NCBI GenBank assembly: GCA_017652705.1
Contig: JAGCAM010000079.1
Coordinates: 11,475 to 75,474, forward strand
DNA from: Kiritimatiellia bacterium
GTDB lineage: Bacteria; Verrucomicrobiota; Kiritimatiellia; RFP12; UBA1067
Length of the DNA: 64,000 bases
Direction: 5' to 3'
Made by a program: the position numbers and the translations under genes. Positions within the stretch are counted from its first letter, which is position 1; each line of letters begins with the position of its first letter. Below are positions 42,689-59,799 of the stretch, piece by piece. The notes under the pieces were generated by a model. That model was not told where the DNA came from and ran no database searches. It saw nothing but the letters and a program-made list of their open reading frames with translations.

Positions 42689-43590
42689 TTTGTCCTCCAT
42701 TCCAATGTTAAATCTATGGAACCCGCCGAGTGGGTGAGGCAGCCGAGGGATATGGCCGTCACGCCGGTCGCGGCGACTTTGCGGGCGGTCGCCAGGGTGA
42801 TGCCGCCGGACGCCTCGGTCTTAACTCTGCCGCGGCACATGGCGACGCAGCGCTTCATGTCCGCGCACGACATGTTGTCGAGCATGATCCATTCCGGCAG
42901 CGCCTTGAGGGCGCTCGCGCACTCGCGCGGCGTTTCAACCTCCACCTCCACCGCGAGCCGCGGAAACTTCTTTCTGGCGGCGGCGACGGCGAGGTCAAGC
43001 GCGTCGGGATCGCCGCCGCGCCAGAGCCGGCGGTGGTTGTCTTTGATCAGCACCCGGTCGAACATGCCGAACCGGTGGTTCGAACCTCCGCCGCACAGAA
43101 CGGCGTATTTGTCGAACATCCTGAGCCCGGGGGTGGTCTTGCGGGTGTCGAGTATGACCGTGCCGTAGTGCGCCGTGGCGTCGACGAACTTCTTCGTGAG
43201 CGTGGCCGTCGCGCACATCCGCTGCATGAAATTGAGCGCGGTCCGCTCCGCCGCGAGAATCGATCTCGCTCTGCCGCGGAAGACGAGAATCGGCTCGCCG
43301 CCGCGCACCGTTGAGCCGTCCTTTTTGAGTATCCGCACTTTCACGGCATGATCCACCGCCTTGAAAACCGCAGCGGCCACGGTCGCGCCGGCGACGACGC
43401 AGCCGGCCCCTCGCGCGTATATCTCGCCGTCGGCGAAGACGTTCTCCGGCACCAGCGCCTCCGAAGTCGCGTCAATGCGCCGCCGGGACGCCGAACCGCG
43501 GCCTCCGGGCACGAGGTCTTCGTCCAGCGCGCGCAGGACGGCCTCTTTGGCCGGCGCGGAGCGCATAACGTCCTTCATCTTCGCGGCCAT
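42685..43590 (-). CDS. nadC: Nicotinate-nucleotide pyrophosphorylase (quinolinate phosphoribosyltransferase).
   Basis: The 301-aa ORF has the QPRTase N-terminal domain and a TIM-like C-terminal domain, with motifs LDTRKTTPGLR and ILDNM. Confidence 0.9.
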   Translation of the reverse strand: MAAKMKDVMRSAPAKEAVLRALDEDLVPGGRGSASRRRIDATSEALVPENVFADGEIYARGAGCVVAGATVAAAVFKAVDHAVKVRILKKDGSTVRGGEPILVFRGRARSILAAERTALNFMQRMCATATLTKKFVDATAHYGTVILDTRKTTPGLRMFDKYAVLCGGGSNHRFGMFDRVLIKDNHRRLWRGGDPDALDLAVAAARKKFPRLAVEVEVETPRECASALKALPEWIMLDNMSCADMKRCVAMCRGRVKTEASGGITLATARKVAATGVTAISLGCLTHSAGSIDLTLEWRTK

Positions 43591-43591
43591 C

Positions 43592-43807
43592 TCAGGCGGG
43601 CATCAGAAATTCCCAATGCTGCCAGAGAATGTAAGTCAGAATGCCGGCTGCGGCGAGGGCGATCAGCCCCGCGACGCCGGCGCAGGCCGCCGCCTTGCCG
43701 CCCCCTGACTTGCGCACGGTCGCGGGGTCGACGGGGTCGAGCCGCAGACGGTCCGCGATTGACACCCCGCCGGGCGCCTTGACCTTCATCGTCTTTTTTA
43801 TTTTCAT
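43592..43807 (-). CDS. Small basic protein with a single C-terminal transmembrane helix (71 aa), function unknown.
   Basis: The product reads MKIKKTMKVKAPGG...AAACAGVAGLIALAAAGILTYILW. Codon usage is GC3-rich like the neighbouring genes. It sits tightly packed between the TIM-barrel gene and nadC. Confidence 0.4.
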   Translation of the reverse strand: MKIKKTMKVKAPGGVSIADRLRLDPVDPATVRKSGGGKAAACAGVAGLIALAAAGILTYILWQHWEFLMPA

Positions 43808-43875
43808 GTCTTCATTATACCACTAATCGCCGCCGGAAATCAACCCGGCGGCGATCGTGGTTTGCGGAATCACGC

Positions 43876-44868
43876 TCAGCGGAACCCCTTGTTCCGCAGG
43901 AATTGGTAGCTCGGCAGCACCGCCGAGAGGTCTTCGAAGTGGCGTTCGCACTCGACCACGTACCACTTGACCCCGTCGGCTTCTGTCGCCACGATGAGCC
44001 CGTCCCAGTCGACCGGGACTGCCCCGGGCCTGCCGGGCTGGCCGAGAATGGCGTCGAACTCTTTGACGTCCTTGCCCATGCCGTTCTCCTTAGCGTGGAT
44101 CGTGGGCGAGCGGTGCGGGTATTTGCGGAACTGCTCCTTGGGGTCGACGCCCGCGCAGGTGGACCAGCCGACATCCTGCTCCATGCAGACGTTCTGGCTG
44201 GTGTTGGAGAAGAAATAATCCCAGAACGAAGTGCCGTCGGTCATCTTGATGCCGTGTTCCCACGTGTGGTTGTGCAGGCCGATGCGGCAGCCGTACTTCG
44301 CCGCGACTTCGGCGCCCTTGTTGTAGAGTTCGACGAGACGCTTGGTGAATTCGTCGATCTCCTTCGTCGGCTGGCAGGTTTCGCCGCCCTGGCCGGTGGA
44401 CCATTTCGCGCCCGGGGGAATGTTGCCGCCGCCGGGGCAGATGATGAGGTTGTTGCCGTAGGCGAGGTTGAAATCGCACGTCGCCTTCATCACGTCGGGG
44501 TTGAACGACCATTCTGCGGTGTTGAAACCGAATTCGCCGTTGCCGACGTGGGTTCCGCAGGCGACGAGCCCGCTGTCGGCGAGCATCTTGCGCAGCGCGA
44601 TCGCGTCGTTGCCGTAGTAGCCGGCGAATTCCACGCCGGTGTAGCCGATCGCCGCGACGTCGTCGAGCGCCTTGGCGAGACCGGCGGCGGGAACAGTTTC
44701 CTTGCCGTCCTTGTCTTTTCTGCCGCCGATGTAGGCGTGGATGGAGTAGAGCTGCAGCGCGAGCCGCGCCTGAAGGGATCTGCCGCTAGAGCAGATGCAG
44801 CCCGGCAGCGCGACCGCGGCTCCGCCGGCGCCGATCGCCGACAGAAACTGTCTTCTTGATACGTTCAT
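43876..44868 (-). CDS. Tat-exported xylose-isomerase-like TIM-barrel protein (sugar phosphate isomerase/epimerase family).
   Basis: The Tat motif MNVSRRQFLSAIGAGGAA is present. The body is an AP-endonuclease-2/xylose-isomerase-like barrel (GYTGVEF, GLHNHTWEH). Confidence 0.8.
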   Translation of the reverse strand: MNVSRRQFLSAIGAGGAAVALPGCICSSGRSLQARLALQLYSIHAYIGGRKDKDGKETVPAAGLAKALDDVAAIGYTGVEFAGYYGNDAIALRKMLADSGLVACGTHVGNGEFGFNTAEWSFNPDVMKATCDFNLAYGNNLIICPGGGNIPPGAKWSTGQGGETCQPTKEIDEFTKRLVELYNKGAEVAAKYGCRIGLHNHTWEHGIKMTDGTSFWDYFFSNTSQNVCMEQDVGWSTCAGVDPKEQFRKYPHRSPTIHAKENGMGKDVKEFDAILGQPGRPGAVPVDWDGLIVATEADGVKWYVVECERHFEDLSAVLPSYQFLRNKGFR

Positions 44869-44917
44869 CTTTATTTTCCTTTCTTTTATTTTGGGTGAAT
44901 CTGGTCAAATCCTGTTG

Positions 44918-46315
44918 TCACCAGCCGGAGAGACGCGGCAGATTGAGCCGCCCGTTGGCCGGGGTCGATCCGTCGAACCTGCCGGCGGAGGCGTTCCAGA
45001 CAAGCTTTTTGCCCGAGTCGAAGAGCGCCGCGACGCCGAGCAGCGAACACTGCGTCATCGCGCCGGCGTACACGAAATCGCTGCCGACTTTCGGCCCGCC
45101 CGCGACAGCCCTCACGAACTCGATGTACGGCTTGTCGTCGGGTGCGTCGCCCGGTATGCGCTCGTACTTGCGCGGGGGCAGCGCGTTGTCGGCGCGCATC
45201 TTTTCAAGAGTGCGGTCCGGCAGCAGCCGCAGGAAGTTCGCCCCGTGGTGGCCGTACTCGATCACCCCCTTCGTGCCGTAGACGAACGCGCCGTTGCACA
45301 TCCAGTTGCGGCCGGCGCGGGCCTCCTTGCTGTTGTACGGCGGAAAGTACTTCATGTCGTCAAGATACTGCGAAGGCTTCGGCACGTCTTTGCACGCGAC
45401 GCCGTCGTACCATACGAGCTTGAACGGTTTGCCGTCCGGCTTCGTGTAGCAAAACGTCGTCTTCACCCCTTTGGGGAACGTGTCACCGTGAACTTCGGGC
45501 CGCCAAGAACCAACCACGTCGGCCTGCACGCTCAAAGGCAGACCGAAGCCGAACGTCCAGAAAATCGGATCCATCAGATGGCAGCTCCAGTCGCCCAGCG
45601 TGTTGCAGCCGTACATCGTCCAGCACCGCCACGTTCCCGGACAGTACTTCGGGTAGTACGGCCGGTGCGGAACCGGCCCCTGCCACTGGTTCCAGTCGAG
45701 CGTGGATGGAACCTCCCACTTCTTTTTGAGCTCGGCGAGGTCGTCCATGTACGAATACACGGCCGGGCACCAGATGTGCGCCTCGGTGACTTCCCCGATG
45801 AGCCCGGCTTCAATCCATTCGCGGAAGTCGCGGATGGTGTCGAAGGCGTGGCCCTGGTTCATCGCCTGGGTGACGAGTTTCGGATTCTCCTTCGCCGCCT
45901 TGAGCATCGACTCCATTTCACTGAAGCTCTGGCAAAGCGGCTTTTCGCACTGCACGTGCTTGCCCCGCTTCAGGCATTCGACCGCCATGGTGGCGTGCCA
46001 GTGGTCGGGCGTGCCGATCAGCACCGCGTCGATGTCGCGGTCCATTTTGTCGAGCATGGTGCGGTAGTGGGAAAAGAACGGCACGGCGGAGTGGGCCTTG
46101 CGCATCGCCTCGCTGCGCTTGAGGTCGACGTCGCAGAGCGCCACGAACTTCGCGCCGGCTTTTTCCAGCCCGCGCATGTCGTCGGCAGGTCGGCCCCCGC
46201 AGCCGATCGCCGCCATCTGCACCGTCTCATTGGCGCGGTAGGCAGTCGCACAGCCAGAAAATATCATCGGGAACCCGAACGCCGAAGCGCCCCGTATGAA
46301 TTCACGTCTGTTCAT
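44918..46315 (-). CDS. Tat-exported Gfo/Idh/MocA oxidoreductase, a candidate glycoside 3-dehydrogenase.
   Basis: The Tat motif MNRREFIRGASAFG is present. The Rossmann motif is VQMAAIGCGGRPADD. The ORF is 465 aa. Confidence 0.85.
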   Translation of the reverse strand: MNRREFIRGASAFGFPMIFSGCATAYRANETVQMAAIGCGGRPADDMRGLEKAGAKFVALCDVDLKRSEAMRKAHSAVPFFSHYRTMLDKMDRDIDAVLIGTPDHWHATMAVECLKRGKHVQCEKPLCQSFSEMESMLKAAKENPKLVTQAMNQGHAFDTIRDFREWIEAGLIGEVTEAHIWCPAVYSYMDDLAELKKKWEVPSTLDWNQWQGPVPHRPYYPKYCPGTWRCWTMYGCNTLGDWSCHLMDPIFWTFGFGLPLSVQADVVGSWRPEVHGDTFPKGVKTTFCYTKPDGKPFKLVWYDGVACKDVPKPSQYLDDMKYFPPYNSKEARAGRNWMCNGAFVYGTKGVIEYGHHGANFLRLLPDRTLEKMRADNALPPRKYERIPGDAPDDKPYIEFVRAVAGGPKVGSDFVYAGAMTQCSLLGVAALFDSGKKLVWNASAGRFDGSTPANGRLNLPRLSGW

Positions 46316-46360
46316 GTTGTTTTATCTCCTTTACCGGTTATGAAATCGACGACATCGGCG

Positions 46361-49300
46361 TCACTTCACCGTGACGGTCTTCTCGGACGAGACTCCGGTC
46401 ATCACGTCGGTTACGACGATCTTCCAGCGGTCGACGCTTTCGTTGAACGCCACGCGGAAGTCGCACGACGCCCTGCCCCCCTTCGCGTCCACCAGCTTGA
46501 ACTTGACGGGCGCGAGGCGCTCGAAGCTTTCGCCCTCCGGCGGCAGCATTTCGAAGCGCAGCACGTGGGTGACGGGCTTCGCCCCCGCGTCGCCGGCGAC
46601 GACCGCCGCCTCCACGTGCAGGTCGGAACCCTTCGCCGCCGAATCCGGCGCGTTCACCTCCACCGCCTTCACCTCGTAGGGCAGCAGCGCGTAGAAGCAC
46701 TCGTCGAGCCCGTTGAACACCACCGGTATCGCGTCGGTGCGGCCGACGGGTCTGCCCGCGCGGATGTCGTAGACCCAGTTCGTCGAGGCGAGTTTGACCT
46801 CCGCCTTCATCGGGAAGCGCTCGCAGCTGCGGCCCGACTTCTCCACTCCGAGGCACACCGCGCCGTCGCGCGTGAAGCGCGTGAATTCGGCCGGCACCGT
46901 CACTCCGTCGGCCACCGCCCGCGCGAACGGCCGGTGCCCGCAGGCCGCGAAAACGCGGCGGAACGCCTCGTTCGCCGCGCCGAGTTCGCCGCGCCCGTCC
47001 AGAAACGGTATCGCAGCCATGTTGATGTTGAACAGCACCGCCCTGCCCTTGCCGAATTCGCGGACGAAAAACGCCTCCGCGCCGGACGCCGCCCGGGCAT
47101 GCGCCTTCGCGCCGGACGCCCGCAGCGACGCGTCGACCAGAACCCCCTTGATCTCCACCGGCGCGGCGGCGAGCCCCTCCACGCGCAGCGTCGCGTGCTC
47201 GACCTTCGCCTCCGGCGAGAGCCGCTTCACGCCGAAGAGTTCGTCCAACGGAGGCTTCGCGTGGCGGACACCGTCCACCCCGTGCGTCGCGATGCGCGCG
47301 TCGGCGATGACGCTGCCGCCGTTCCTGACGAACGAAATTATCTCCTCGATCTCCTTGTCGCTCAGGATCTGCGTGTAGCCGAGCACCAGCGTCTTGACGC
47401 CTTTCCTGAGGTCGCCCTTCTCGATCATTTCGCTCGAAATGCCGTCCCACTGGAAACCGTGCGCGACCACCAGCCCTTCAAGCGTGCCGCGGGCCTGGCC
47501 GTGGGTGCTCATCTCTTTCACGAGCGGGCTGAGATGGCCGGAGTTGCGGCTCACCAGCACGCGGATGCCGTCGTTCTCGCGCTTGGAACGGGTGGTGAGC
47601 GCCACCGGCCCGCGCATGATTTCGCGGTACGTCGCGAACATCCACCCCGCGCGGCCGGGGTTCACCGACCCGTCGCCTTCGACCATGTAGCTGCCCAGCC
47701 AGAACCAGCTGAAATTGCACCCGTCGAGAAGGCCGTGCCATACCTGCCGTTCGCGAATCGGCCTCTTTACCTTCTTGCCGCCGTACACGCCGATGCACTC
47801 GCCGATGTAGCGGTGCGGAACTGCCCGCGCGAGCTGGATGTCTTCGCTGCCGGCGTAGGGGCAGACCGTGTTGAGGTGCTTGAGCACGTCGTACTTGATG
47901 TTGCCGAGCGTCGACGCGCCGAACCCGAAGCCGATCGACCGGTCGCGCGAACAGACCCCGCGCGCGATCGCCGCCGCCTGGTCGACGAACGCGTCCTCGA
48001 GGTACGTCTGCCGGTCGATCGCCGGCGCAAACACGCCGTCCTTCTGCCGTTCCTCTATCAGCTTCTGCTCGATTTCGAGAAAATCCTTCACCGACGTCTT
48101 CCACACGGCGTTGAGCTTGTCGACCGTGCCGTACTTCTTCTTCAGCCAGAAGAGGAAGTTCACGTACTGCGGCGACTCGGCGGGTTTCGCCGCCTTCACC
48201 GCCTCGAGCGTGACGTCTTTCCAGTCGGCGAACTTCGTGTTCAGATGCGCGTTCATCACTTCCACCCTGTCGTACGCGTCGCGCATCGCCGCGACGACCG
48301 TCGGCAGTTCGTTCGGCGTCAGGTTCTCGACCATCTTCGCCACCGAATCGCGGTCGGTTCCGAACAGCCGGAAGTCCTTCACCCCCTGCCTGCGCAGGTT
48401 CTCGGCCTTGCGCTCGCGGTACGCCGGCACCCAGTCGGGTATGGTGTTCTGAATTACGCTCGGTGCACCCGAGTCGTCGCCGAGCGAAATGAAGCGCCCG
48501 TTGATTTTCCGACACTGCTCGGCGTGTTCCGCGTAGCGGCGTTCGAGATGCTTCAGCCACCAGCGGCTTGAAATCGAGCAGCCCCTGTCGGAGGTGCTGC
48601 CGGGTATGCGGTCGCGGATGACCGGGTCGCCGCCGCGAAAGCACGATCTGACGTCGCTGGTCTCCCACAGATCAATGCCGCAGTACTGGAAGTATGCAAG
48701 GCGAAGCTCAGCGAATTCGCCGCTGCCGCACGGGTCGGTGGTGAAAATGCGGTAGTCCGCGCCAGCGTCGCCGCGGTGGAGAAAACAGGTCAGCCGCCTG
48801 ACGTCGAAAACCCGGTCGCCTTCAAGGTAGACGTCGATGAAGTTGCAGCTCCAGTCGAGAAACTTCTGGTCGAAGACGATTTCGACCGAATCCGCCGAGG
48901 CGTCGACCGCCGCCTCCACCCGCGAAATGACGCGGTTGCGCACGTCGCGCAGATCGCCGCGCACTTTGAGCCCGCCCGCCGACGCGCCGTTCACCGCCGC
49001 CCTGACCGCGATCTTCTCGCCCGGGTTGAACGTGCCGCGCCCGGCCGAGAACCGAACTTCGCCGAACTCCGGCGGCGCGATCTCCGCGCGGCAGTAGGCG
49101 CCGCCGCAGCCGCACTTGACCGGCTTGCCTGGCTTGATCACCAGTTCGCCTGAAGCGAAATCGAGCAGCTTGCCGCCCGCCTCGAGCCGCGCGTCGACCG
49201 TGTAGCGGCCCGCGCCGAGCCGCGGCGCCGCGAGCGTCACGTGGTTGGTGCCCGCCGGCAGATCCACCGCGGGGCGGTCCGGGCCCGCCAGAAGCCTGCC

Positions 49301-51379
49301 GAACGTGTCGCGTACCCGCCAGACGACTTCGCCCTTCCACGCCGGGCCCGCGGTGGTCAGCGTCGCCGCCGCACCGGTGCCGCCGTCCTGCACCGGAGCG
49401 CCTACTTCGAGGCAGCGGCGTTTGCCGCGCATGCCCAGCCCCGTCATCACCGCGCGGGCCGCCGCGGCGAGGCAGTATTCGTCTTCGTAGGCGATGTCCG
49501 GCGTGAGCGTCCAGCCGGGCGTGATCAGCGTCGTCAGGCACCACCCGGCCGCCCTGCCCGGATTGTAGCAGGCGAACGAACCCTTGCCGAACGCCGCGGT
49601 CGCGACGCCGGGCAGCCGGCAGTCGATCGACTTTTCAAGATCGAACCTCCCGCCGCCTTCCGGACGCACGAGTTTCACCATCCCCTTCGGGTTGCCCCGC
49701 GCGAGTTCTTTTTCGTGCTCGACTTCGCGGCCGAACACGTTGTTGCCGTTCACCACCACCACCTTCGCCCCTTCGAGCATCCGCCCGTAAAGCCAGCACT
49801 GCAGCTCCATCGGCCACGCATCGATCGACGTGCCGAGAAAGACGAACTGTTCGTACGGCGTCTCCTTGAGCATCCGCTCGAGCATCTTGCGCTTCTCCGG
49901 CGCGAGCATCAGGCCTTCGTAGAAATAGTCGCTCGTCTTGCCGAGACCGCGGTCGAAACACTGAAAAACGTCCGCGTCGACGTCAAGCCGGTTCATCAGC
50001 GCCCACGCCTCCCACGCGCCGTGCTGGTGGGCGCAGACGAGCGTCTTGCCGGACGCCCGCTCCGCGAGGTTCTTCGCCCACGGGAACAGCGTCGGTTCGC
50101 TGTTCCGGCGTTCCCACGGCTTCGGCGTTCGCTCCGGCTCCTCGGCGAATTTGTCCGGCGCGTCGGCCGGCGGGTTGATCTTCACCGGCACGCGCACTTT
50201 CTTCTCCGTGCGCATCAGGTTGCGCACGCACTCCCAGTAGGCGTTTTCGAACGCGGCGTCCCACGCTTTGTTCTTGCGTTCCAGCTCCGAAACCGCCGCG
50301 ATGTCCAGCTTCGCCGCGGCAAGCACGTTCGACCTGGCCGTCTCGTATTCGCCCCGCTGGCTGGATATCCGCCTGAGGACGTCGCCGAAGAACCCCTTTC
50401 TCGGCGGCTCGGTTATTGATGCTACGAAATCGTCGAGACGCTTGAGTTTCGCCCCGCAGCCGGCTATGCACTCCTTGCCCTTGGCGAGATAGCTGAGCCG
50501 CGACTCGCGGCCGTGGTCGACCACCACGTATTCCGAATCGGTCTGCACGTAGATCGTGCGCCGGTCGAGATCAGGATACGCCAGCCGCAGCCCGTCAACC
50601 GGGTTCTTCGGCGTCTTCTCCACCAGCACGCACTTGCCGTAGAGCTCGGCGTTGTGGTGGGTCTGCCCCTGGGTCGACCAGCCCAGCACCGCCATCGCTT
50701 CGCGCGTCGAGTCGGGCGGCAGTCCGGAACCAGGTTTCGGATACCACGTCTTCCAGAGCCTGATACGCGCGGGCTCCATGCCGAAAATGTAGCCGACTTT
50801 CGCTTTCATCTCCAAGTGCGTCAGCGCGAAGCGCGCCTCCACCTGCCAGTAGTCCTTGCCGATCGTGTACGCCTTGTCCCAGTCGGAGTTGAGCCCGTAG
50901 TTGCTGTCGGCGAGAATGCCCCAGCCGAAGTCGTAGTACCAGATGATCTCCTTCTCGTCGGTCGGGTTCAGCCAGATCTGGAACTTCGTGTGGCGGTCGT
51001 TGTTGCCGTCGAGGTGCAGTTCGACGTTGTCCCGCCAGATGAAGTTCCGCCGGCGGTCGTTGCGCGCGTCGTTGAACCGCTTCATGTTCTCCGGGGTGTC
51101 CTCCCAGCAGGTGGCCAGCACGTAAAAGTACTTGTCGTCCCAGAGACACCTGAATTCGGTGCGCGGCGTCTTCCACCGCGTGTCGATGGAGACCGTCGTG
51201 CAGCCGAATTCCGTCAGCGGCACGGCGCGTTTCCAGTCGGCCTCGTCCATCTTGCCGTCGATGACGACGGGGGCGGTCGCCTTCTCGACGAAGTGCAGTT
51301 TGAAACTGTCGGTCGTCTTGTCGGCCGCCTGCGCGGCCGCCGCGATCGAAACCGCTGCCAGTATGGTCGTCTTTTTCAT
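46361..51379 (-). CDS. Giant secreted multidomain protein: an N-terminal CBM9-like domain, a central region of unknown function, and a C-terminal GH42-like TIM barrel with a GATase1-like trimerisation domain and a beta domain.
   Basis: The 1672-aa ORF has a signal peptide. The CBM9-like motif is VIDGKMDEADWKRAVPLTEF. A GH42 trimerisation-like motif is KTLVLGYTQILSDKEIEEIISFVRNGGSVIADARIA. The architecture parallels the next gene. Confidence 0.55.
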   Translation of the reverse strand: MKKTTILAAVSIAAAAQAADKTTDSFKLHFVEKATAPVVIDGKMDEADWKRAVPLTEFGCTTVSIDTRWKTPRTEFRCLWDDKYFYVLATCWEDTPENMKRFNDARNDRRRNFIWRDNVELHLDGNNDRHTKFQIWLNPTDEKEIIWYYDFGWGILADSNYGLNSDWDKAYTIGKDYWQVEARFALTHLEMKAKVGYIFGMEPARIRLWKTWYPKPGSGLPPDSTREAMAVLGWSTQGQTHHNAELYGKCVLVEKTPKNPVDGLRLAYPDLDRRTIYVQTDSEYVVVDHGRESRLSYLAKGKECIAGCGAKLKRLDDFVASITEPPRKGFFGDVLRRISSQRGEYETARSNVLAAAKLDIAAVSELERKNKAWDAAFENAYWECVRNLMRTEKKVRVPVKINPPADAPDKFAEEPERTPKPWERRNSEPTLFPWAKNLAERASGKTLVCAHQHGAWEAWALMNRLDVDADVFQCFDRGLGKTSDYFYEGLMLAPEKRKMLERMLKETPYEQFVFLGTSIDAWPMELQCWLYGRMLEGAKVVVVNGNNVFGREVEHEKELARGNPKGMVKLVRPEGGGRFDLEKSIDCRLPGVATAAFGKGSFACYNPGRAAGWCLTTLITPGWTLTPDIAYEDEYCLAAAARAVMTGLGMRGKRRCLEVGAPVQDGGTGAAATLTTAGPAWKGEVVWRVRDTFGRLLAGPDRPAVDLPAGTNHVTLAAPRLGAGRYTVDARLEAGGKLLDFASGELVIKPGKPVKCGCGGAYCRAEIAPPEFGEVRFSAGRGTFNPGEKIAVRAAVNGASAGGLKVRGDLRDVRNRVISRVEAAVDASADSVEIVFDQKFLDWSCNFIDVYLEGDRVFDVRRLTCFLHRGDAGADYRIFTTDPCGSGEFAELRLAYFQYCGIDLWETSDVRSCFRGGDPVIRDRIPGSTSDRGCSISSRWWLKHLERRYAEHAEQCRKINGRFISLGDDSGAPSVIQNTIPDWVPAYRERKAENLRRQGVKDFRLFGTDRDSVAKMVENLTPNELPTVVAAMRDAYDRVEVMNAHLNTKFADWKDVTLEAVKAAKPAESPQYVNFLFWLKKKYGTVDKLNAVWKTSVKDFLEIEQKLIEERQKDGVFAPAIDRQTYLEDAFVDQAAAIARGVCSRDRSIGFGFGASTLGNIKYDVLKHLNTVCPYAGSEDIQLARAVPHRYIGECIGVYGGKKVKRPIRERQVWHGLLDGCNFSWFWLGSYMVEGDGSVNPGRAGWMFATYREIMRGPVALTTRSKRENDGIRVLVSRNSGHLSPLVKEMSTHGQARGTLEGLVVAHGFQWDGISSEMIEKGDLRKGVKTLVLGYTQILSDKEIEEIISFVRNGGSVIADARIATHGVDGVRHAKPPLDELFGVKRLSPEAKVEHATLRVEGLAAAPVEIKGVLVDASLRASGAKAHARAASGAEAFFVREFGKGRAVLFNINMAAIPFLDGRGELGAANEAFRRVFAACGHRPFARAVADGVTVPAEFTRFTRDGAVCLGVEKSGRSCERFPMKAEVKLASTNWVYDIRAGRPVGRTDAIPVVFNGLDECFYALLPYEVKAVEVNAPDSAAKGSDLHVEAAVVAGDAGAKPVTHVLRFEMLPPEGESFERLAPVKFKLVDAKGGRASCDFRVAFNESVDRWKIVVTDVMTGVSSEKTVTVK

Positions 51380-51419
51380 TCGCTTTTCTCCCCCGCGCCG
51401 CGGAATCTTTCCGCAACGC

Positions 51420-54400
51420 TCATTTCACCGGTGCCGCGAGCGTCACCGCCGCCGCGCTTTCAAGCCCGGTCGCCATGTCGCGCAGCACAACTTTGTAACG
51501 TCCGGGCGCGTCGGAATACGGGAACTGGAAGTCCACCTTCGTCTTGCGGTCCGCGCAGAACAGCGTTTCGCGGTTCGCGATGCGCGCGCCTGCGGGCGAC
51601 TCAGTCTCCAGCCGGTATACCGAGCCTTTGCGCAAAACCGCCGTGTCCAGCGAAATCTCGTCGCCGGGCGCGATTTCCGTCTTCGTCAGCCTGACTTCGG
51701 GCGGCCGCTGCTCGGTCTTGAACGCCGCGTAGAGCGCATGCGGTTTCTCGAGACGCGCGATCGTTATGCGGTCGGACCGGCCGATGAAACCGACATCGGA
51801 TTCATACACCCACTTCTCCTCGCCGAGCTCGATTTCCGCCCGCTTGCCGAGATTGTAGGTGCTGGTGACGAACCCGAGCAGCGTCATGTCGCCGAGTTCG
51901 CGGATCCGGAACTTGACACCGTCCGTCGAAATCCCGGAAAGCTTCTCCTTCACCGTTATCCCGCTCTCGGCGAGCAGCGCGGTTATCCGGTCGTCTTTCC
52001 AGCCGCGCTTGAGCTCCTTCCATAGACCGGAGAGCGGCGGTTTTTCGCGGCGCGCGAGGTATCCGTCGAGAACGCCCGGTTCGCAGTCGGAATATATCTT
52101 GCCGCCGCGTTTCGCGAACTTGGCGAGCGCGGCGGTTTCGCCGTCGTCGAGGGCGACCGCGCCGGAGAGAAACAACGCCTTCATCTCGTCCAGCCTGCAC
52201 AGCGACCGCCGGGTGACGATCGCCGTGTCCATGCCGTTGCGGTAGCAGTAGTCGATGAACGCGCCGTTGCCCTCGCGGGCGGACGGAAAATCGTCCGAAA
52301 GCGTCGACGCGTGGTTGGAGGCGTGGGAATAGTAGATCGCGAAGGCGCTTTTCCGCATCGGCACCCGGCACAGCAGCGCGCCGATCCCGCGCGACAGCGG
52401 CCTCCACGTGGGCAGCATGCGCTTCACGTACGGTGCCGGCTGAAAATCGCTCGACATTCCGGACTCCGCGCTCGCGGGGTCCATCTGGAACCAGAGGTCG
52501 GCGTTGAGGGTTCCGCACAGCACGTACCCCCACTGCTCCGCGGCGAAACCGTCGCGCGGCGAGCGTTGGTAGCCGCCCCACCAGATGCCGCGCAGGCAGC
52601 GCGGCGCGATGTTGCGCACCAGTTCGTCGTCGACCTTGTTGCCGTACGGCCCCCAGAACTCCAGTTTCGAAAGCGTGTATTCGATGTCGGCGCCGGGCGA
52701 CCCCTCCGCGCCGCAGCGCGCTTTCGGGTCGCGCTTCTTGATTATCGCCGTCAGTTCGTGGAATGTGTCGGCGTAGAGGTGCTCCGCGTACTGCACCTGG
52801 TCGTACCACGTCACCCAGTCGTTCGCCGCCCTGGACGCTTTCACGCGCACGTGCGGCGCCTCCGCGAAGTCCGCTATGTTGGTGCCGTGCGCCCGGTTGT
52901 ACGCCGCAAGCGTGCCGTAACGCTTCTTCAGATAATCGCGGTAGTACCCTTCGCTCTCGGCGTCGCCGAAGCCGATGTCGGACGAATACCCGCACTCGTC
53001 GCCGAAACTCCAGGCGAGCGGTCCGTACGGCAGCGTTGCGTCGATTCTCTTGTTGTAGAAACGCGCGAGCCGCTCGCGGACCGCCGGCCGGTGCACGTTG
53101 AGGTCGTGCCCGTTCGCGTCCCACCACTGCTTGATTTCGGGATCGCCGCGCGACGATTTCGGTATCGGGCATTGCGTCGTCCACACCGTGCCGCTGGGAC
53201 CGGCGGCGAGGCACACGCGCGTCGAATACGGCAACGCCCGACCGTTGAATATCGCGCTCAGCGAGCCGGACGACAGATGGTTGTTGTAGCCGATTTCATC
53301 CATCAGCGGGGGCGCGAAGAGTTCCGCGAGATTGCCTGGGCCGATGCCGTCCCAGCAGATCATCGCGTAGTCTTCGAAACGGTGCGTCGGGAAGAACACC
53401 AGTTTCTTCACCTTCGCCGCCGCGCCCCCGTCGGCCTTCCTCAACGTCACGTCGACGCACCCCGCCTTCGTCGGGAACGGCTTCGCGGCGATCTGATACC
53501 TCACGCTCCGCGCGCCGCCGCCCACCGGAATCTTGCACCTGGCCCGCACCTGGCGGTAGGGCATGTCGCGCAGCAGCACATCGACCGTCCACTTCTCCCC
53601 ACGAGGCACGGGCTTCTCCCACGCGATCACCGTGTCGAACCGGCAGCCCTCCGCTACCACCATCCTGTTCGTGCCGTTGACGGTCATCGCCCCGACCGGG
53701 CTCTGCACCGTAAACTTCCTCACCGACGCGAAATCGTCGCAGCCGCCGCTCCCCGGCACCACGTCGACGTAGTAGTCGCCCCCGGAGTAACCGGATATGT
53801 CGACCGCGAACACGTTGCGCCCGGCCTTGACCGGCGCCGTCTCGTCGACCAGCAGTTCGTTGTCAGACGATCTCACCCGGTACTTCACCGAATCGCACGC
53901 GCCGCGGGGCGCGGCTTCCACGGTGAACGGATACAGCTCGGTGCCGAGCGGCAGCGGCTCGGCCACGCCGGCGGCCTGCGCGAATTTAACCGTCGACGCC
54001 GGGTTGCGCCCCGCCGCGTAACGCGCCGCGTTCATGAAATACGTCGACCGCGTCTCGTAGTTGGCCCTCCACGCGAAGTTCCAGAATTCAGGCACCGGCA
54101 CGTCGATGCACACCACGCGCCCCCTGCCGTAGCGGTACGCCCTCACCGCCTTCGGCGACAGCCCCGCCGCCGACAGTATCCGCCGGCCTTCCTCGTCGGG
54201 CTCGAGGTACTTCTCGTCGGGCACCAGATCGCGCCCAACCCTGGAACCCCGCAGCACCAGCCCCACCCCCTCGTCATGCACCCGCCTGACGATCTCGCAG
54301 CGGTACACCGCCGGTATGCCGGACGGATAGGTGTAGTGAAGCACGATCACTTCGGGGTTTTTCGCCAGCATCGTTTCAAACTGACGGTAGCGCGGCAGCG

Positions 54401-55667
54401 GCAGCCCCCCGGTCACGAGATCGGCGAAGATCGACGAATATCCGAACGGCATCGGGAAAACATCCACCTTGAAATCGCAGCGCTGGCAGACCTCAACCGC
54501 ATCGCGGACCCACGGCCCGGTTCCGGTTATGCACAGCACCTTCGCCGCGCCGCCGAGCGATTTTTCGCACCATTTCAGATGCGGCGTCACGTACGCCGTC
54601 TGACTCGGATTCCACCTGAACCAGCCGTTGTGGCCGTCGTACTCCTTCGGCGGGTTGAGGTCGTATGTGCCGGCGAGCCGCAGCTTCTTCGGCGGCAGCG
54701 GCTTCTCCATCGTCGCCATCCTGACTATGTTGGTGAGCGCGGCGTCCGTCTCCGCCTTGTCCGCCGCGGCGATTTCGTCGAGCGTCTCCTGTATCGTCTT
54801 CGATATCTCGCGCGTGCCGTCTTCGTCGTGCAGGTAGCTCTTGCCGCCGATGCCGACCGCCCAGTACCCTGGCACGCGCTTCTCGATCATCTTAAGTATC
54901 GTCGCCGCGGCTGGCTTCGCCCCGTCGGAAAACTGCAGATACCCGAACCTGTTCGCCGAGAAAAAGCTCGCCATCACCGCCGAAGCGCCGAAATCGCCCC
55001 AGCCGCGCTCGGTGAAACGGAACCGCGAATGGTTGAACCGCCACACTTCGCCCGGCCTGACCTTCGCCCGCCCGTGCAGCGCCGCCCACGGTATGAAAAG
55101 CTCGAATTCCCAGCGGTCGCTGAATATCTTCGCCGCGCTCTTGATGCCGTCGGGCTTCCACGCCGGCTGCGGATTGTTCGGATCCATTCTCCAGAGCGTG
55201 GAACAGACGCCGAGCGAATTGACCATGAACTTGTAGAACCCGACCGCGTCGCCGACCGGATCAAGGTAAATCTCGCCGATGTCGTCGGTCTCGATCGCAT
55301 TGTCGCCGCTCTTGCGGGCCCGTTGCCGCAGATTGCCGGGCTGCGACTCGGGGTTGCACACCCCGACGTACAACCCCGCGTCGTCGTACATGATCGCCGC
55401 GCTCGTGCCCTCGAACTTGTGCTTCGGCCGCGGTTTTATGTATTCGTAGTAGACCGTGTGCGGCATGGCGTCTTTCCAGCACGCATCGTCGAGCGCCCCG
55501 TCGATTTTCGGCGGCGTCTTCGCCGGCATCGCCACGTCAAATGAGATTTCCGCCACGTCCACCGCCTGCACCGCCGCCGCGAACACTGCCGCAACGCCGC
55601 ATACCGCGGCCCTCAATGCCGTCAAGCGGCCGGTATGTCGGTCGACAAAAGATTTTTCAGTTTTCAT
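51420..55667 (-). CDS. Giant secreted multidomain protein paralogous to the previous gene: CBM9-like N-terminus and a GH42-like beta-galactosidase-type region.
   Basis: The start was chosen at MKTEKSFVDRHTGRLTALRAAVCGVAAVFAAAVQA, a signal peptide. The CBM9-like motif is PPKIDGALDDACWKDAMPHT. The TIM-barrel region includes WSFGDECGYS. The trimerisation-like motif is MKALFLSGAVALDDGETAALAKFAKRGGKIYSD. Confidence 0.55.
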   Translation of the reverse strand: MKTEKSFVDRHTGRLTALRAAVCGVAAVFAAAVQAVDVAEISFDVAMPAKTPPKIDGALDDACWKDAMPHTVYYEYIKPRPKHKFEGTSAAIMYDDAGLYVGVCNPESQPGNLRQRARKSGDNAIETDDIGEIYLDPVGDAVGFYKFMVNSLGVCSTLWRMDPNNPQPAWKPDGIKSAAKIFSDRWEFELFIPWAALHGRAKVRPGEVWRFNHSRFRFTERGWGDFGASAVMASFFSANRFGYLQFSDGAKPAAATILKMIEKRVPGYWAVGIGGKSYLHDEDGTREISKTIQETLDEIAAADKAETDAALTNIVRMATMEKPLPPKKLRLAGTYDLNPPKEYDGHNGWFRWNPSQTAYVTPHLKWCEKSLGGAAKVLCITGTGPWVRDAVEVCQRCDFKVDVFPMPFGYSSIFADLVTGGLPLPRYRQFETMLAKNPEVIVLHYTYPSGIPAVYRCEIVRRVHDEGVGLVLRGSRVGRDLVPDEKYLEPDEEGRRILSAAGLSPKAVRAYRYGRGRVVCIDVPVPEFWNFAWRANYETRSTYFMNAARYAAGRNPASTVKFAQAAGVAEPLPLGTELYPFTVEAAPRGACDSVKYRVRSSDNELLVDETAPVKAGRNVFAVDISGYSGGDYYVDVVPGSGGCDDFASVRKFTVQSPVGAMTVNGTNRMVVAEGCRFDTVIAWEKPVPRGEKWTVDVLLRDMPYRQVRARCKIPVGGGARSVRYQIAAKPFPTKAGCVDVTLRKADGGAAAKVKKLVFFPTHRFEDYAMICWDGIGPGNLAELFAPPLMDEIGYNNHLSSGSLSAIFNGRALPYSTRVCLAAGPSGTVWTTQCPIPKSSRGDPEIKQWWDANGHDLNVHRPAVRERLARFYNKRIDATLPYGPLAWSFGDECGYSSDIGFGDAESEGYYRDYLKKRYGTLAAYNRAHGTNIADFAEAPHVRVKASRAANDWVTWYDQVQYAEHLYADTFHELTAIIKKRDPKARCGAEGSPGADIEYTLSKLEFWGPYGNKVDDELVRNIAPRCLRGIWWGGYQRSPRDGFAAEQWGYVLCGTLNADLWFQMDPASAESGMSSDFQPAPYVKRMLPTWRPLSRGIGALLCRVPMRKSAFAIYYSHASNHASTLSDDFPSAREGNGAFIDYCYRNGMDTAIVTRRSLCRLDEMKALFLSGAVALDDGETAALAKFAKRGGKIYSDCEPGVLDGYLARREKPPLSGLWKELKRGWKDDRITALLAESGITVKEKLSGISTDGVKFRIRELGDMTLLGFVTSTYNLGKRAEIELGEEKWVYESDVGFIGRSDRITIARLEKPHALYAAFKTEQRPPEVRLTKTEIAPGDEISLDTAVLRKGSVYRLETESPAGARIANRETLFCADRKTKVDFQFPYSDAPGRYKVVLRDMATGLESAAAVTLAAPVK

Positions 55668-55740
55668 GAAGTTAATTCTACCAAAATACGCCGCCAAGGG
55701 CAATAGCACGCGCCGGACGCGGTACGTCGGCGGCTGTCAC

Positions 55741-57267
55741 TCACTTGCGGGGGACGGACTGCCCGCCGGCGCAGCTGCACGGCAGAAACCGCACGCGTAC
55801 CATCTCCGCGTCCGAAAGCCGGACGTCGTCAGGCAGCGGACCGGGCTTCTCCGCCGAAACGAAAGCGTTCGGCCGCGGCTCCTGGACGGGCACGACGATC
55901 CATTCCGACCCGTCGGCCTTCCGCTCGACGCGCCCGCCTTCCGCCGCAACGACCTGGCGGACGAGTTTTTCGCTGACGGCCTTGAGTTTGTCCCAGTCGT
56001 AGTCGGTGAATTCCCACTTTCTGCCGCGGTCGAGCTTTTCCAGAAACCCGCCCCGGATGCGGCTCGCGCCGAGCGAGGCTCCGAGCACTCCGCAGGCGGA
56101 GGCCGGGTTGCAGTCCGAATCGCATCCGCACCCGGTGGCGATCCTCGCGGTTTTCTCCATGTCGCCATCGCCCCACAGGTATCCGATCAGCACGTAAGCG
56201 CCGTTCAGCCTGACGTCGATGCCGGCAAAGGAGACGAATCTGCAGTTCTGGGGCGTGAAGTATTTGCGCGTAAGCGCCTCCCACGCAGTCCGCCAGTTCG
56301 ACGGGTCGCGCCCGTACGCCGCGAGCGTGTCGCGCACCATCTCCGCGTAGCGCGACTCCGCCGGAATGTGCCTGAGCGCCGAGCGCACGACCGAGGGGCG
56401 GTCCTGCGTGAAATACGCCTCGGCGTACATCGCCCCTACGAACTGCCCCGCGTAGAGCCCGTCGCCGTAGTTCATCACCGCGCCGAACCGGTTGCCCAGC
56501 CTGACCGCGCGGTTGGGCAGCCCCGGCGATATTATGCCGCTGAAGTCGGCCTCGATCTGATAGTCTATGTCGTACGGGGTCGGATGAAAGTTCGGGTGCC
56601 CGCAGCTGGGCGCCGCAATCCCGCGGCGCAGATTGTTCCGGGCGTTGTGGTTCGCGCACCACAGCCGGTACTTAGAATTGGCGAAGGCGATGCCGGCCTC
56701 GCGCGCGTCAACGTCGACTCCGCACCTGTCGAGCACGTCGAGAAACGTCATCTCCACGTAGAGATCGTCCTGGCAGAAGGTGCCGTTGATGATCTCGGCC
56801 TTGTATTCAGGCATGAGGTCGTCAGGCACGGGCTTGCCTACGCATTTGAATTCCGTCGGCGCGCCGTAGGCGACGCCGATGGACTGCCCGAGCCACGCGC
56901 CGGACATCCTGTCGCGGAATTGATCCATGGCGAGACTTCTCTCCGGCGCAGCCCTCTTCGCCCCTGTCTTCGGAACGGCTTTCTCTTTCGGCGCGGCGCC
57001 GACCCCTTCAATCGAATTCTTCTCCGCAACTTCGCCCTTTTCCGCACTTTTGACGGCGGCCCTCTCTTCGGGCAGATCGACTATCGTGCCGGGAAGCAGT
57101 TTCCTGCCCCCTATTACATTGCCGCCTTCTATAACCTCGACCGGCACGTCGCGCTTAAGCCGGTAGCTTCTGATCTTTCGGACGTCGTTTTGCTTCTCCT
57201 GCCCGAATGCCGCAAAAATCGCCAGCGCCATCGCGCAGACGGCCGTCATCGCTACGTGTTTCTTCAT
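55741..57267 (-). CDS. Secreted ADP-ribosylglycohydrolase (ARH/DraG) fold protein.
   Basis: A signal peptide is present (MKKHVAMTAVCAMALAIFAAFG). A linker of about 100 aa follows. The ARH-type core has the motif GAWLGQSIGVAYGAPTEF. A C-terminal extension is present. Confidence 0.65.
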   Translation of the reverse strand: MKKHVAMTAVCAMALAIFAAFGQEKQNDVRKIRSYRLKRDVPVEVIEGGNVIGGRKLLPGTIVDLPEERAAVKSAEKGEVAEKNSIEGVGAAPKEKAVPKTGAKRAAPERSLAMDQFRDRMSGAWLGQSIGVAYGAPTEFKCVGKPVPDDLMPEYKAEIINGTFCQDDLYVEMTFLDVLDRCGVDVDAREAGIAFANSKYRLWCANHNARNNLRRGIAAPSCGHPNFHPTPYDIDYQIEADFSGIISPGLPNRAVRLGNRFGAVMNYGDGLYAGQFVGAMYAEAYFTQDRPSVVRSALRHIPAESRYAEMVRDTLAAYGRDPSNWRTAWEALTRKYFTPQNCRFVSFAGIDVRLNGAYVLIGYLWGDGDMEKTARIATGCGCDSDCNPASACGVLGASLGASRIRGGFLEKLDRGRKWEFTDYDWDKLKAVSEKLVRQVVAAEGGRVERKADGSEWIVVPVQEPRPNAFVSAEKPGPLPDDVRLSDAEMVRVRFLPCSCAGGQSVPRK

Positions 57268-57361: not shown

Positions 57362-57814
57362 TCACCCCCAGGCCAACCTGACATTCTCGACACCCCATGT
57401 CCACGCGCTTCCGGAAAAGCCGTGGATCCCCGTCAATGTCCCGACCGGCACACTCCTCCCGAGATTGACCCCTGCGTCAACGCATGGCGTTCCCTGCGCT
57501 AAAAAGCAATCCTGCATGAAAAGCGGATCGGAATAGATAAGAATTCCGTTTTTGTAGTATCGCTGGGCGGTCGGCGTTATTACCGCGGTGATGACATTCG
57601 TAACGCCGGGCGATACCGCAATGGCGGTGTCACAGTCAGGGTTGCCGTTGCCGGATATATCTTTCCATGTGGTTGCGGCAGAATCATGCACGCCTGCACC
57701 GGCGTCGTCGATGCCGTCGAAATGTACAACGAGACCTCCTTGTATGTAGGCGCTCGCGGGCATGCCGTCTGCCGTCATCAACATAATCGCAAGTACAACC
57801 GGAAAATATTTCAT
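57362..57814 (-). CDS. Small secreted concanavalin-A-like lectin/LamG-type domain protein. It may be truncated.
   Basis: A signal peptide is present. LVVHFDGIDDAGAGVHDSAATTWKDISGNGN resembles the start of LamG_3-type domains. The 150-aa ORF is shorter than a full domain. Confidence 0.4.
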   Translation of the reverse strand: MKYFPVVLAIMLMTADGMPASAYIQGGLVVHFDGIDDAGAGVHDSAATTWKDISGNGNPDCDTAIAVSPGVTNVITAVITPTAQRYYKNGILIYSDPLFMQDCFLAQGTPCVDAGVNLGRSVPVGTLTGIHGFSGSAWTWGVENVRLAWG

Positions 57815-58557: not shown

Positions 58558-59799
58558 TCAGCCGAGCCTGTCCACCGTCATAACGGGCAGATTCTTTCCG
58601 GAAGGCTCTTTCATCGGCTTCATGCCGGAGGGGTCGAATGCGTAGCCGTTCGAGCCGAGCGGCCAGACGGCCGGGGCGGTGTTGAGCACGGTTGCGCGAA
58701 AGCCCTGCATCGTCGCGCCGAGATTGCCGGTGTGGGAGCTGTTACAACCCTCGTTCTCGATCACGAACGGATTGCTGTATCCTTTCACCATGAGCGTCTC
58801 GAGGAACTTCGTCCAGTCGCAGGAATCGCTGCCGCCGAAACCGGGCAGGCGCGGCTCGTAATTGAGACGGTCCCACTCGTTGGCGGGCAGCGGCACACCG
58901 GCCTTCTTCGCGAGGACGGGGTCGACGCTCTGCATGGGGAACAGGCGTCCCCAGTGTACGGCTTCGGTTTCTCCGGGGAAGTTCCTCGTGCCCTTGATGT
59001 GGACGCGGCGCAGCTTTTTGAAATCCATCGCCTCGATAACCGCCGAAGGGTCGATGTGCTGCCAGATGTCGTGCGACGGATCGTACGTCTCTTGCAGCGC
59101 TGAGTCGTCGTCAAGCACGGCGTACATCAGTTTGCGCGCAGCGAGACACCCCGGCAGGTTGCAGTAGCAGTCGGTCGAAGACAGCGGCCGCCACCCCTCC
59201 ATCGGGCAGTTTTCGACGCAGAGCGTGACTCCGAGGTCCTTGGCGTATTTGAGAATCGGGGTGAAGACCTTTTTGAACTTCATGAGGTTCTTCTCGAAGC
59301 CGTTCTCCTCGTTGGAGAGGGCGACGTCGTACCCGACGAACGTTCCGCAGACGACGTCGTTCGCGTCGCCGCCGAGCAGCGCGGCGATGCGGACGAGTTT
59401 GAGGATGTGGTTCTGGTTGACGATCTGGAGTTCGGGTTTGCCGCCGATAAGGTTGTCGTAGGCGCCGACCGACATGCGCACGCCTTCGCGGTTGCAGATG
59501 TCGATCACCCGTCTGGCGTCGTCGATCGAGAAATTCTCGTAGTCGAGATGCGTGGCGACGTGATCCTGGCGGTCGGTGTCGCGGCGGAACACGCAGAGCT
59601 CGAGGCCCTGGGCTCCGACGCTTTTGGCGCGGGCGACGACGGTTTCGAAATTGCGGTCGGCGGCGAGCGCGCTCGACATCAGCCAGATCTGGTTGTTGCG
59701 CGGTTTCGGCTTCGCCTGCCGGGCTAACGCCGAACCGGGGGTGAACGCACCCGCCGCGGCTAGCGCGGCGGCGCTTTTGAAGAAGTCCCTCCTGTTCAT
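58558..59799 (-). CDS. Tat-exported xylose-isomerase-like TIM-barrel protein (sugar phosphate isomerase/epimerase family).
   Basis: The start was chosen at MNRRDFFKSAAALAAAGAFTPG, a Tat motif. The barrel region contains GAQGLELC and CVENCP. Confidence 0.75.
   Translation of the reverse strand: MNRRDFFKSAAALAAAGAFTPGSALARQAKPKPRNNQIWLMSSALAADRNFETVVARAKSVGAQGLELCVFRRDTDRQDHVATHLDYENFSIDDARRVIDICNREGVRMSVGAYDNLIGGKPELQIVNQNHILKLVRIAALLGGDANDVVCGTFVGYDVALSNEENGFEKNLMKFKKVFTPILKYAKDLGVTLCVENCPMEGWRPLSSTDCYCNLPGCLAARKLMYAVLDDDSALQETYDPSHDIWQHIDPSAVIEAMDFKKLRRVHIKGTRNFPGETEAVHWGRLFPMQSVDPVLAKKAGVPLPANEWDRLNYEPRLPGFGGSDSCDWTKFLETLMVKGYSNPFVIENEGCNSSHTGNLGATMQGFRATVLNTAPAVWPLGSNGYAFDPSGMKPMKEPSGKNLPVMTVDRLG

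Follow-up and report, generated by a model that had tools for sequence, protein, structure and literature searches.

In the glycoside hydrolases (GH) of clan GH-A, the Asn that directly precedes the acid/base Glu contacts C2 of the sugar, and the nucleophile is not normally found at that position. Several families close to the proteins considered here have been characterized. GH167, formerly called "GH42-like", is a multidomain clan GH-A enzyme in which E295 is the acid/base residue and E472 the nucleophile of BovGH167 (PMC6923384). The GNB/LNB phosphorylases of GH112 have the GH42 architecture, in which phosphate binds at the position of the GH42 nucleophile and the acid/base position is taken by the catalytic acid (PMC8106489), and GH151 has D154 on beta4 and E235 on beta6 (PMC10154630). 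Here, we examine two adjacent genes, A and B, which encode giant and apparently secreted proteins with a GH42-type barrel. They lie in a 64,000-nucleotide stretch of the genome of a gut Kiritimatiellia bacterium (assembly GCA_017652705.1, contig JAGCAM010000079.1, positions 11,475 to 75,474; hereafter the window, to which all coordinates refer), and sequence alignments indicate that the catalytic centre of their products has been rewired.

A second group of enzymes that bears on these proteins dispenses with an enzyme nucleophile. The motif concerned is "GGDE" in GH20 and "DD" in GH84. Catalysis in GH123 and related groups is substrate-assisted and employs a D-E pair (PMC11087588), and DUF4838 corresponds to GH163 and GH185, which are substrate-assisted and cleave N-acetylhexosamine (HexNAc) linkages (PMC10570127). 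Literature searches on GH42-like proteins and on substrate-assisted catalysis in GH42 yielded no description of a GH42-fold family with a D-E motif. The Kiritimatiellae specialise in the breakdown of complex and host glycans.

Results

The Active Site of the A and B Families

The A and B proteins each carry a pair of adjacent carboxylates in the beta4 motif of the barrel, at the position of the GH42 N-E motif (table 1). The residues S965, G967, D968, D969, and S970 of the A motif are present in all 21 members of the A family, and G903, D904, and E905 of the B motif in 19 of 19 members of the B family. When B is aligned on BovGH167 (6ptm), its "wnlGDEcgys" falls on "YmLcNEphwn", which places D904-E905 on the N-E acid/base motif. 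Among the other superfamily members described below, the beta4 Asp is found in 114 of the 124 that could be aligned, the following residue being Glu in 110 and Asp in 13, and the superfamily "YslGDE" aligns on the "WHVSNE" of GH42. Neither MAFFT nor a global hhalign comparison aligned the GDDSG of A with the GDEC of B, owing to an insertion of about 85 amino acids in A. We infer that the two motifs are equivalent because of the strand order in the AlphaFold2 model of A, in which beta4 (model residues 84-86, A 963-965) is the sole strand between alpha3 and the FLFWLKKKYG helix, because both conform to the pattern [S/N]-L-G-D-[D/E]-[S/C]-G, and because the preceding helices match.

No conserved carboxylate was found on beta7 in either the B family or the wider superfamily, where the consensus is G-x-x-x-G-x-Y; the individual patterns are G-E-C-I-G-V-Y in A, G-I-W-W-G-G-Y in B, and G-l-w-y-G-g-Y in a group of relatives of about 1200 amino acids. 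The nucleophile segment "LMEQ" of GH42 aligned on the Glu-free "akpgtllGl", the two alignments made differing by five residues in register. Two other carboxylates are widely conserved: an Asp that follows beta8 (D1236 in A, D1088 in B) is universal in the superfamily, and one on beta5 (E1002) occurs in 19 of 19 B-family members. The A family has Gly or Cys in place of this beta5 residue and still keeps its beta4 dyad invariant. Because the A family lost the one yet retained the other, the beta4 dyad would be the constant catalytic element.

These alignments indicate that the catalytic centre is rewired with respect to clan GH-A, the N-E having become D-D in A and D-E in B as well as in the majority of the superfamily, with no conserved Glu on beta7. 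A first-pass annotation of the window, made from the DNA sequence and its translations, had described the C-terminal regions of both proteins as GH42-like; this holds for the fold only, and because neither the N-E of the GH42 catalytic site nor its nucleophile Glu is conserved, beta-galactosidase chemistry is doubtful.

A Large Family Behind the Pair

The size of the group to which A and B belong is easily underestimated. Word-indexed homologue searches gave only 21 matches for A and 24 for B and falsely suggested a tiny family, and a third search of this type with the combined A and B alignment added only matches to the CBM9-like region. An exhaustive hidden Markov model search, with an A-family profile of the barrel and the GH42M domain, corrected this picture: the number of representative clusters recovered was 3935 with the limit set at E<=1e-3, 2100 at E<=1e-10, and 666 at E<=1e-30. 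The top 150 matches are mostly proteins of about 1200 amino acids, whose consensus starts straight at the alpha/beta domain and then continues with the same core as A and B. Their profile matches the solved GH42 structure 3tts at E 4e-28. Among 40 sampled members, 38 match both GH42M and a part of the Pfam model Glyco_hydro_42, and 13 have a C-terminal MG2 domain. One superfamily member, from a WOR-3 bacterium (UniRef A0A7V3NUI0), carries the name "beta-galactosidase".

The core common to the superfamily runs from an alpha/beta domain and two beta-sandwiches through the (beta/alpha)8 barrel and a GH42M-like domain to a further beta-sandwich and a macroglobulin (MG)-like domain; to this core the A and B families of the Kiritimatiellae add a helical linker and, at the N-terminus, a CBM9-like module. 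The central 700 or so residues of A, which the first-pass annotation had left unassigned, do indeed match no Pfam family; they are, however, no insert but a set of defined domains, which represent the conserved N-terminal core of the superfamily since the consensus of the 1200-residue relatives begins there. A and B are anciently diverged members of this large superfamily, which we regard as one of secreted, multidomain enzymes that arose from the GH42 fold and would process glycans.

Proposed Chemistry and Its Alternatives

The chemistry we favour for this centre, with a probability of about 0.35-0.4, is substrate-assisted catalysis of the beta-N-acetylhexosaminidase type, because an Asp stands directly before the presumed acid/base residue and an enzyme nucleophile is missing. 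The proteins would then hydrolyse beta-linked N-acetylhexosaminides by neighbouring-group participation, as is done with a D-E pair in GH20 and GH123 and with a D-D pair in GH84. D968 of A, or D904 of B, would polarise the 2-acetamido group; D969 or E905 would serve as the general acid/base; and the enzyme would be anchored to the glycan by its CBM9-like module. The adjacency of the two genes could mean that both products act on complex glycans in concert with the oxidoreductases, xylose-isomerase-like TIM proteins, and DUF1080 proteins encoded on either side.

The surroundings of the A-family genes in other genomes are consistent with glycans that bear HexNAc or sialic acid. These genes adjoin GH123_cat (E 1.6e-36), GH123-like, and DUF4838+CBM9 genes, in one relative a sulfatase and ROK genes, and in another genes for a DHDPS resembling NanA, an SSF transporter, PIG-L, and SASA, a family of sialate esterases; one A-family locus also has a BNR_2 sialidase-like gene. 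The nearest CBM9-like domains beyond the A and B families are those of GH123 and GH20 proteins (E 3e-23 and 4e-21). The loss of the beta5 carboxylate from A with retention of the dyad, together with these HexNAc- and sialic acid-related neighbours, fits a substrate-assisted mechanism.

Several observations weigh against this mechanism. The A family has a Glu in the middle of beta7, E1194, in 17 of its 21 members, and one of the two GH42 alignments puts it at the position of the nucleophile. A Glu or Asp is present on beta5 in about 100 of 143 other superfamily rows. The superfamily barrel shows no relation to the DUF4838 and GH123 alignments (hhalign probability <1%), and since homology is not detectable, the likeness of the dyad to that of the neighbouring-group families would have to be convergent. 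Clustering with hexosaminidase genes may equally well signify a complementary activity and not the same one. Finally, a B-family paralogue of 2040 amino acids in the same metagenome-assembled genome (MAG), P0026 (J6T01_01100), ends in a GH51 alpha-L-arabinofuranosidase (ASD1_dom, E 2e-50, plus Alpha-L-AF_C), a hint that substrates of the B family may contain arabinose; other B-family neighbours encode GH78, pectate-lyase-fold, and G8-domain proteins, and these neighbours and the GH51 fusion suggest plant glycans. One B-family gene lies in a housekeeping context. The complete proposal, an unrecognised GH family of at least several hundred clusters that lost its nucleophile, exchanged N-E for D-E or D-D, and became by convergence a substrate-assisted hexosaminidase on the GH42 fold, is put forward as a candidate, and taken as a whole it is rather doubtful.

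Some of the same carboxylates figure in an alternative, a two-carboxylate glycosidase in which the beta4 Asp (D968 of A, D904 of B) would itself serve as nucleophile and the role of acid/base would fall to E905/D969, the beta5 E1002, or the Asp after beta8. Such an enzyme would resemble GH151, GH29, or GH13 and would cleave alpha-linked substrates, for example alpha-L-fucosides, alpha-galactosides, or arabinosides; GH29 combines its beta4 Asp with a Glu on beta6, and GH13 with a Glu on beta5. The beta5 carboxylate of the entire B family and of many other members, the universal Asp after beta8, and the arabinofuranosidase fused to a B paralogue all speak for it, as does the precedent of D154 and E235 in GH151 (PMC10154630). 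The A family does without the beta5 residue, however, while its dyad is invariant; moreover, profile alignment puts the second residue of the dyad exactly on the acid/base Glu of GH42 and GH167 and the first on the Asn of the clan GH-A N-E, and at the sequence level only the GH42M-like domain gave a match to GH151. We consider this alternative unlikely in itself, and a GH151-like nucleophile on beta4 nearly as likely as substrate-assisted catalysis.

The absence of a beta7 nucleophile could also be read in the manner of GH112. An inverting phosphorylase or hydrolase of this sort would protonate the leaving group with D969/E905, and phosphate or water would attack from the vacant space of the beta7 nucleophile; GH112 does share the GH42 architecture, a phosphate site having taken over the nucleophile's place (PMC8106489), and weak Pfam LBP_M matches occur in 2 of 40 of the relatives of about 1200 amino acids. 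On the other side stand the signal peptides of A and B and a structural similarity to GH112 far below that to GH42; a superficial check of the A and B alignments found no conserved Arg/His cluster for phosphate. Phosphorylases are generally cytoplasmic. We regard this alternative as improbable.

To the notion that A and B are catalytically dead scaffolds, in which the GH42 fold and the CBM9-like module would serve for glycan capture on the cell surface, we also give a low probability. It would account for the loss of the canonical nucleophile from both proteins, the many binding-type modules (CBM9-like, immunoglobulin (Ig)-like, and MG-like), and the lack of any Pfam catalytic domain at threshold. 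Decayed sites would not, however, be expected to keep the beta4 dyad and its neighbours invariant in 21 A and 19 B members and in some 90% of the rest, and a family of such size and diversity is what one would expect of enzymes.

Origin of the Gene Pair

BLASTP aligned A with B in four collinear blocks at 24-26% identity (best E 4e-14), which extend well beyond the CBM9-like domain and include A 1067-1382 with B 917-1230 and A 1525-1671 with B 1290-1424. In an hhalign comparison of the two family alignments, 1337 columns were aligned at 20% identity (probability 100, E 3.1e-70). By these comparisons, A and B are homologous from end to end and represent anciently diverged paralogues, so that the paralogy proposed in the first-pass annotation was correct. 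Its further proposal, a tandem duplication with neofunctionalisation toward related glycans, fares less well. Word-indexed searches gave 21 full-length homologues of 1630-1752 amino acids for the A family and about 20 orthologues of some 1290-1470 amino acids for the B family. In other Kiritimatiellae, the class from whose MAGs all taxon-named members of the two families come, each gene has separate orthologues that are 40-75% identical to it, and the MAG of gene B encodes two or more additional paralogues of the B family. In the ten contigs of relatives that were examined, A never stands next to B; upstream of the A orthologue with 75% identity, for example, lies a GH123 gene and not B. In the catalytic region, the A profile scores a median of 187 bits against the relatives of about 1200 amino acids versus 68 against the B family, and the B profile a median of 127 bits versus 81 against the A family. 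Because the two proteins are only about 20% identical, have their own orthologues, share no adjacency in relatives, and are each nearer to the shorter relatives than to each other, the pair appears not to have arisen by local tandem duplication. That a canonical beta-galactosidase gene of the GH42 type underwent a recent tandem duplication, after which the copies diverged toward related glycans, is consequently very improbable despite the 40-nucleotide spacing of the genes on one strand and the single architecture common to both over their full length, the more so as A and B lack the catalytic residues that are canonical in GH42.

Gene and Domain Organization

The domain boundaries of A that follow the CBM9-like domain (table 1) were taken from two AlphaFold2 models built on an alignment of 39 sequences, one of residues 230-900 (predicted local distance difference test 84.3, predicted template modelling score 0.83) and one of residues 880-1672 (90.6 and 0.90, respectively); those of B were placed by mapping hhalign and other alignments onto A.

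Table 1. Positions of the genes, domains, and motifs discussed in the text.
Feature	Coordinates	Strand	Residues or size	Remarks
Gene A	46361..51379	-	1672 aa	ATG start; secreted multidomain A-family protein; open reading frame list and translation
Signal peptide of A	51326..51379	-	1-18	MKKTTILAAVSIAAAAQA then AD; read from translation
A CBM9-like domain	50615..51298	-	~28-255	Pfam CBM9_1
A small beta-sheet and four-helix long segment	50204..50602	-	~260-392	
A alpha/beta domain	49433..50044	-	~446-649	Alternating strands and helices in AlphaFold2 secondary structure
A two Ig/MG-like beta-sandwiches	48779..49417	-	~655-867	
A GH42-type (beta/alpha)8 barrel	47585..48766	-	~872-1265	
A beta4 motif S-L-G-D-D-S-G	48467..48487	-	965-971	C-terminal end of beta4, GH42 N-E position
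A-family-specific helical insertion	48191..48448	-	~978-1063	Between beta4 and FLFWLKKKYG helix; model helices 104-184
A GH42M-like alpha/beta domain	46940..47578	-	~1268-1480	GATase1/ThuA type
A GH42 domain C-like beta-sandwich and terminal MG-like sandwich	46367..46924	-	~1486-1576 and ~1586-1671	
Gene B	51420..55709	-	1429 aa	Maximal open reading frame, GTG start; B-family protein; open reading frame list and translation
B CBM9-like domain	54924..55550	-	~54-262	hhalign to A CBM9-like domain
B alpha/beta domain and two beta-sandwiches	53391..54539	-	~391-773	Alignment to A
B GH42/GH167-like (beta/alpha)8 barrel	52362..53378	-	~778-1116	
B beta4 motif [N/S]-L-G-D-E-C-G	52989..53009	-	901-907	
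B shorter GH42M-like domain, beta-sandwich, and MG-like domain	51438..52355	-	~1119-1424	
ADP-ribosylglycohydrolase-family protein	55741-57267	-	508 aa	PF03747, E 3e-26; directly upstream of B
Open reading frame	57362-57814		150 aa	No Pfam match
GFO/IDH/MocA oxidoreductase and TAT-signal xylose-isomerase-like TIM pair	44918-46315 and 43876-44868	-		
GFO/IDH/MocA oxidoreductase and TAT-signal xylose-isomerase-like TIM pair	59814-61373 and 58558-59847	-		
DUF1080 "3-keto-disaccharide hydrolase"	41186-42700 and 61433-62482	-		
GH3	27684-29771			
GH127-DUF4838-GH2 fusion	19131-24380	-	1749 aa	

The CBM9-like N-termini recognised in the first-pass annotation are present in both proteins (VIDGKMDEADW at A 38-48, KIDGALDDACW at B 68-78). 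Pfam CBM9_1 matches A with 28.5 bits, above its cutoff of 23.4, over positions 1-83 of the 185 in the model, and the A profile finds 1i82, the solved CBM9 of the T. maritima xylanase, with E 1.6e-4. On B alone the same model scores 12.6 bits, which is below the cutoff, and B-family homologues pass (P0033, for example, at E 1.9e-6). Five residues of the domain, W49, E120, D150, W167, and E181, are invariant in both families. The helical segment that follows in A may act as a stalk. The alpha/beta domain after it corresponds to the N-terminus of the relatives of about 1200 amino acids (consensus VVTPHIxWAKPY...VLFI) and gave no confident match in the Protein Data Bank (PDB); with the middle AlphaFold2 model as the query, the only structural matches were to Ig/MG-type sandwiches and coiled coils. 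An internal duplication, with this domain derived from the GH42M-like one, was ruled out at the sequence level (hhalign probability 1.2%). The helical insertion in the barrel of A is absent from B and from a B homologue.

The GH42M-like motifs also proved to be as first reported, LVLGYTQILSDKEIEEIISFVRNGGSVIAD at about A 1331-1360 and LFLSGAVALDDGETAALAKFAKRGGKIYSD at about B 1179-1208. Pfam GH42M scores 18.1 bits on A alone, below its cutoff, and the A-family profile matches the trimerisation domain of solved GH42 beta-galactosidases at E 1.4e-9. No useful match to either protein came from NCBIfam, and no Pfam catalytic domain exceeded its threshold in A or B.

The product of gene A is identical to the metagenome protein P0001, and a GGGGGAG stands 8 nucleotides upstream of its ATG. 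Gene B corresponds to NCBI J6T01_04980 of a Kiritimatiellae MAG, an identical protein record of 1401 amino acids with a TTG start. The real start of B is probably this TTG at 55625 or the ATG at 55667 (1415 amino acids), that is 28 or 14 codons downstream, and not the GTG at 55709; a sigma70-like site (55703-55675) lies inside the N-terminus as extended to the GTG. Both proteins begin with Ala-rich hydrophobic stretches, ending in AQA in A and in VQA in B (...AVFAAAVQA, then VD), which look like Sec-type signal peptides, and on this basis both would be secreted. A scan of the operon boundaries for promoters and terminators gave counts at chance level. Two long open reading frames on the plus strand, at 44795-48571 (1258 amino acids) and 52311-55544 (1077 amino acids), overlap genes A and B in antisense; they are most likely stop-poor artefacts of a coding strand with 64-66% GC. 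No further copies of A or B were found within the window.

Genomic Context

The same set of genes, for a GFO/IDH/MocA oxidoreductase, a xylose-isomerase-like TIM protein with a twin-arginine translocation (TAT) signal, and DUF1080, lies on both sides of the pair (58558-62482 and 41186-46315). This flanking set recalls, as we presume, the pathways of oxidative (3-keto) glycoside cleavage, and DUF1080 and GFO genes also follow the A-family genes in two relative contigs (L007 and L009). A gene for a calcineurin-like phosphoesterase (Metallophos) stands directly after the A-family gene in two others (L005 7448-8587, L008 5012-5911) and may be a conserved partner of the A family.

The window contains four open reading frames with DUF4838, all on the minus strand (7992-9929, 24913-27669, 30401-33757, and 19131-24380). 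That at 30401-33757 (1118 amino acids) has an N-terminal GFO/IDH/MocA NAD-binding domain fused to DUF4838, an arrangement that would join an oxidoreductase with a hexosaminidase-like module. In the 1749-residue fusion, a GH127 beta-L-arabinofuranosidase that is complete, with its catalytic, middle, and C-terminal domains, shares one polypeptide with a segment of DUF4838 and a GH2 (N-terminal, TIM, DUF4982, and C5 domains). The carbohydrate-active enzyme genes of the window are scattered and do not form a polysaccharide utilization locus; interspersed among them are housekeeping genes, namely proS-like, dnaB, clpB-like, V-type ATPase subunit, nadC, and coaX genes.

Discussion

The interest of genes A and B lies in the combination of an unusual active site with the size of the family that has so far been hidden behind other labels. 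If our interpretation is correct, hundreds to thousands of metagenomic proteins labelled as GH42 "beta-galactosidases", of which UniRef A0A7V3NUI0 is an example, would be wrongly named, and a new glycoside hydrolase family would have to be recognised in which an altered mechanism was installed on an old scaffold. It would also constitute a clear case of catalytic rewiring inside clan GH-A; GH112 and GH151 are the sole families in which we found the GH42 architecture to have been departed from in a comparable way. In addition, an activity could be named for some of the largest secreted proteins of the Kiritimatiellae, and the superfamily would provide a panel of targets for the processing of mucin, N-glycans, or arabinogalactan. 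Should A and B be ordinary glycosidases with unusual residues, the consequence would be a modest annotation at the family level only.

Comparison with Known Families

A fold search with the model of A 880-1672 ranked, after GH42, GH164 (20.9), GH151 (19.3), GH35 (18.2 and 17.8), GH167 (15.6), and GH112 (13.6). The likeness to GH42, a clan GH-A family of beta-galactosidases and alpha-L-arabinopyranosidases (e.g., 5xb7, 3tts, and 1kwk), extends to the presence of the barrel, the alpha/beta trimerisation domain, and the beta-sandwich, and the relatives of about 1200 amino acids even keep a Cys-rich "cfsptC" that aligns on the "CYCDNC" of GH42. Nonetheless, identity to the solved structures is only 12-13%; Pfam Glyco_hydro_42 (PF02449) fails to match A and scores 11.2 bits on B against a cutoff of 21; A has about 870 additional N-terminal residues and an additional C-terminal MG-like domain; and A and B are apparently secreted. 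To this must be added the D-D or D-E in place of the beta4 N-E and the want of a conserved nucleophile Glu on beta7.

The CBM9-like module shares with CBM9-2 of T. maritima Xyn10A (1i82) an IDGxxDxxW beta-sandwich at the N-terminal side, but in A and B the module itself is N-terminal, it is followed by a helical linker, and its match to the CBM9 model is partial.

With the substrate-assisted families GH20, GH84, GH123, GH163, and GH185, the A and B proteins have in common, at the level of sequence, an adjacent Asp-Glu or Asp-Asp after beta4 and the lack of an enzyme nucleophile, and members of these families, which share the same type of CBM9-like module, are frequent neighbours of A-family genes. 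Homology to these families is, however, not detectable (by hhalign against DUF4838 and GH123), and the fold neighbours of A are GH42, GH164, and GH151 instead of GH20, GH84, or GH123. The GH151 alpha-L-fucosidase (6tvk) differs in that its barrel gives no sequence match and in that GH151 proteins have about 660 residues and none of the extra modules, and the GH112 phosphorylase (2zus), which is cytoplasmic, likewise gives no match in the barrel. GH167 comes closest in sequence, the exo-beta-carrageenase BovGH167 (6ptm) being the best PDB match of the B profile (E 2e-9, residues 785-981, from beta3 to alpha4), but this match is local, and the counterpart of its nucleophile E472 is absent from B. 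In their fold, A and B are GH42-like, but by the sequence and catalytic features that define these families they are members of neither GH42 nor GH167.

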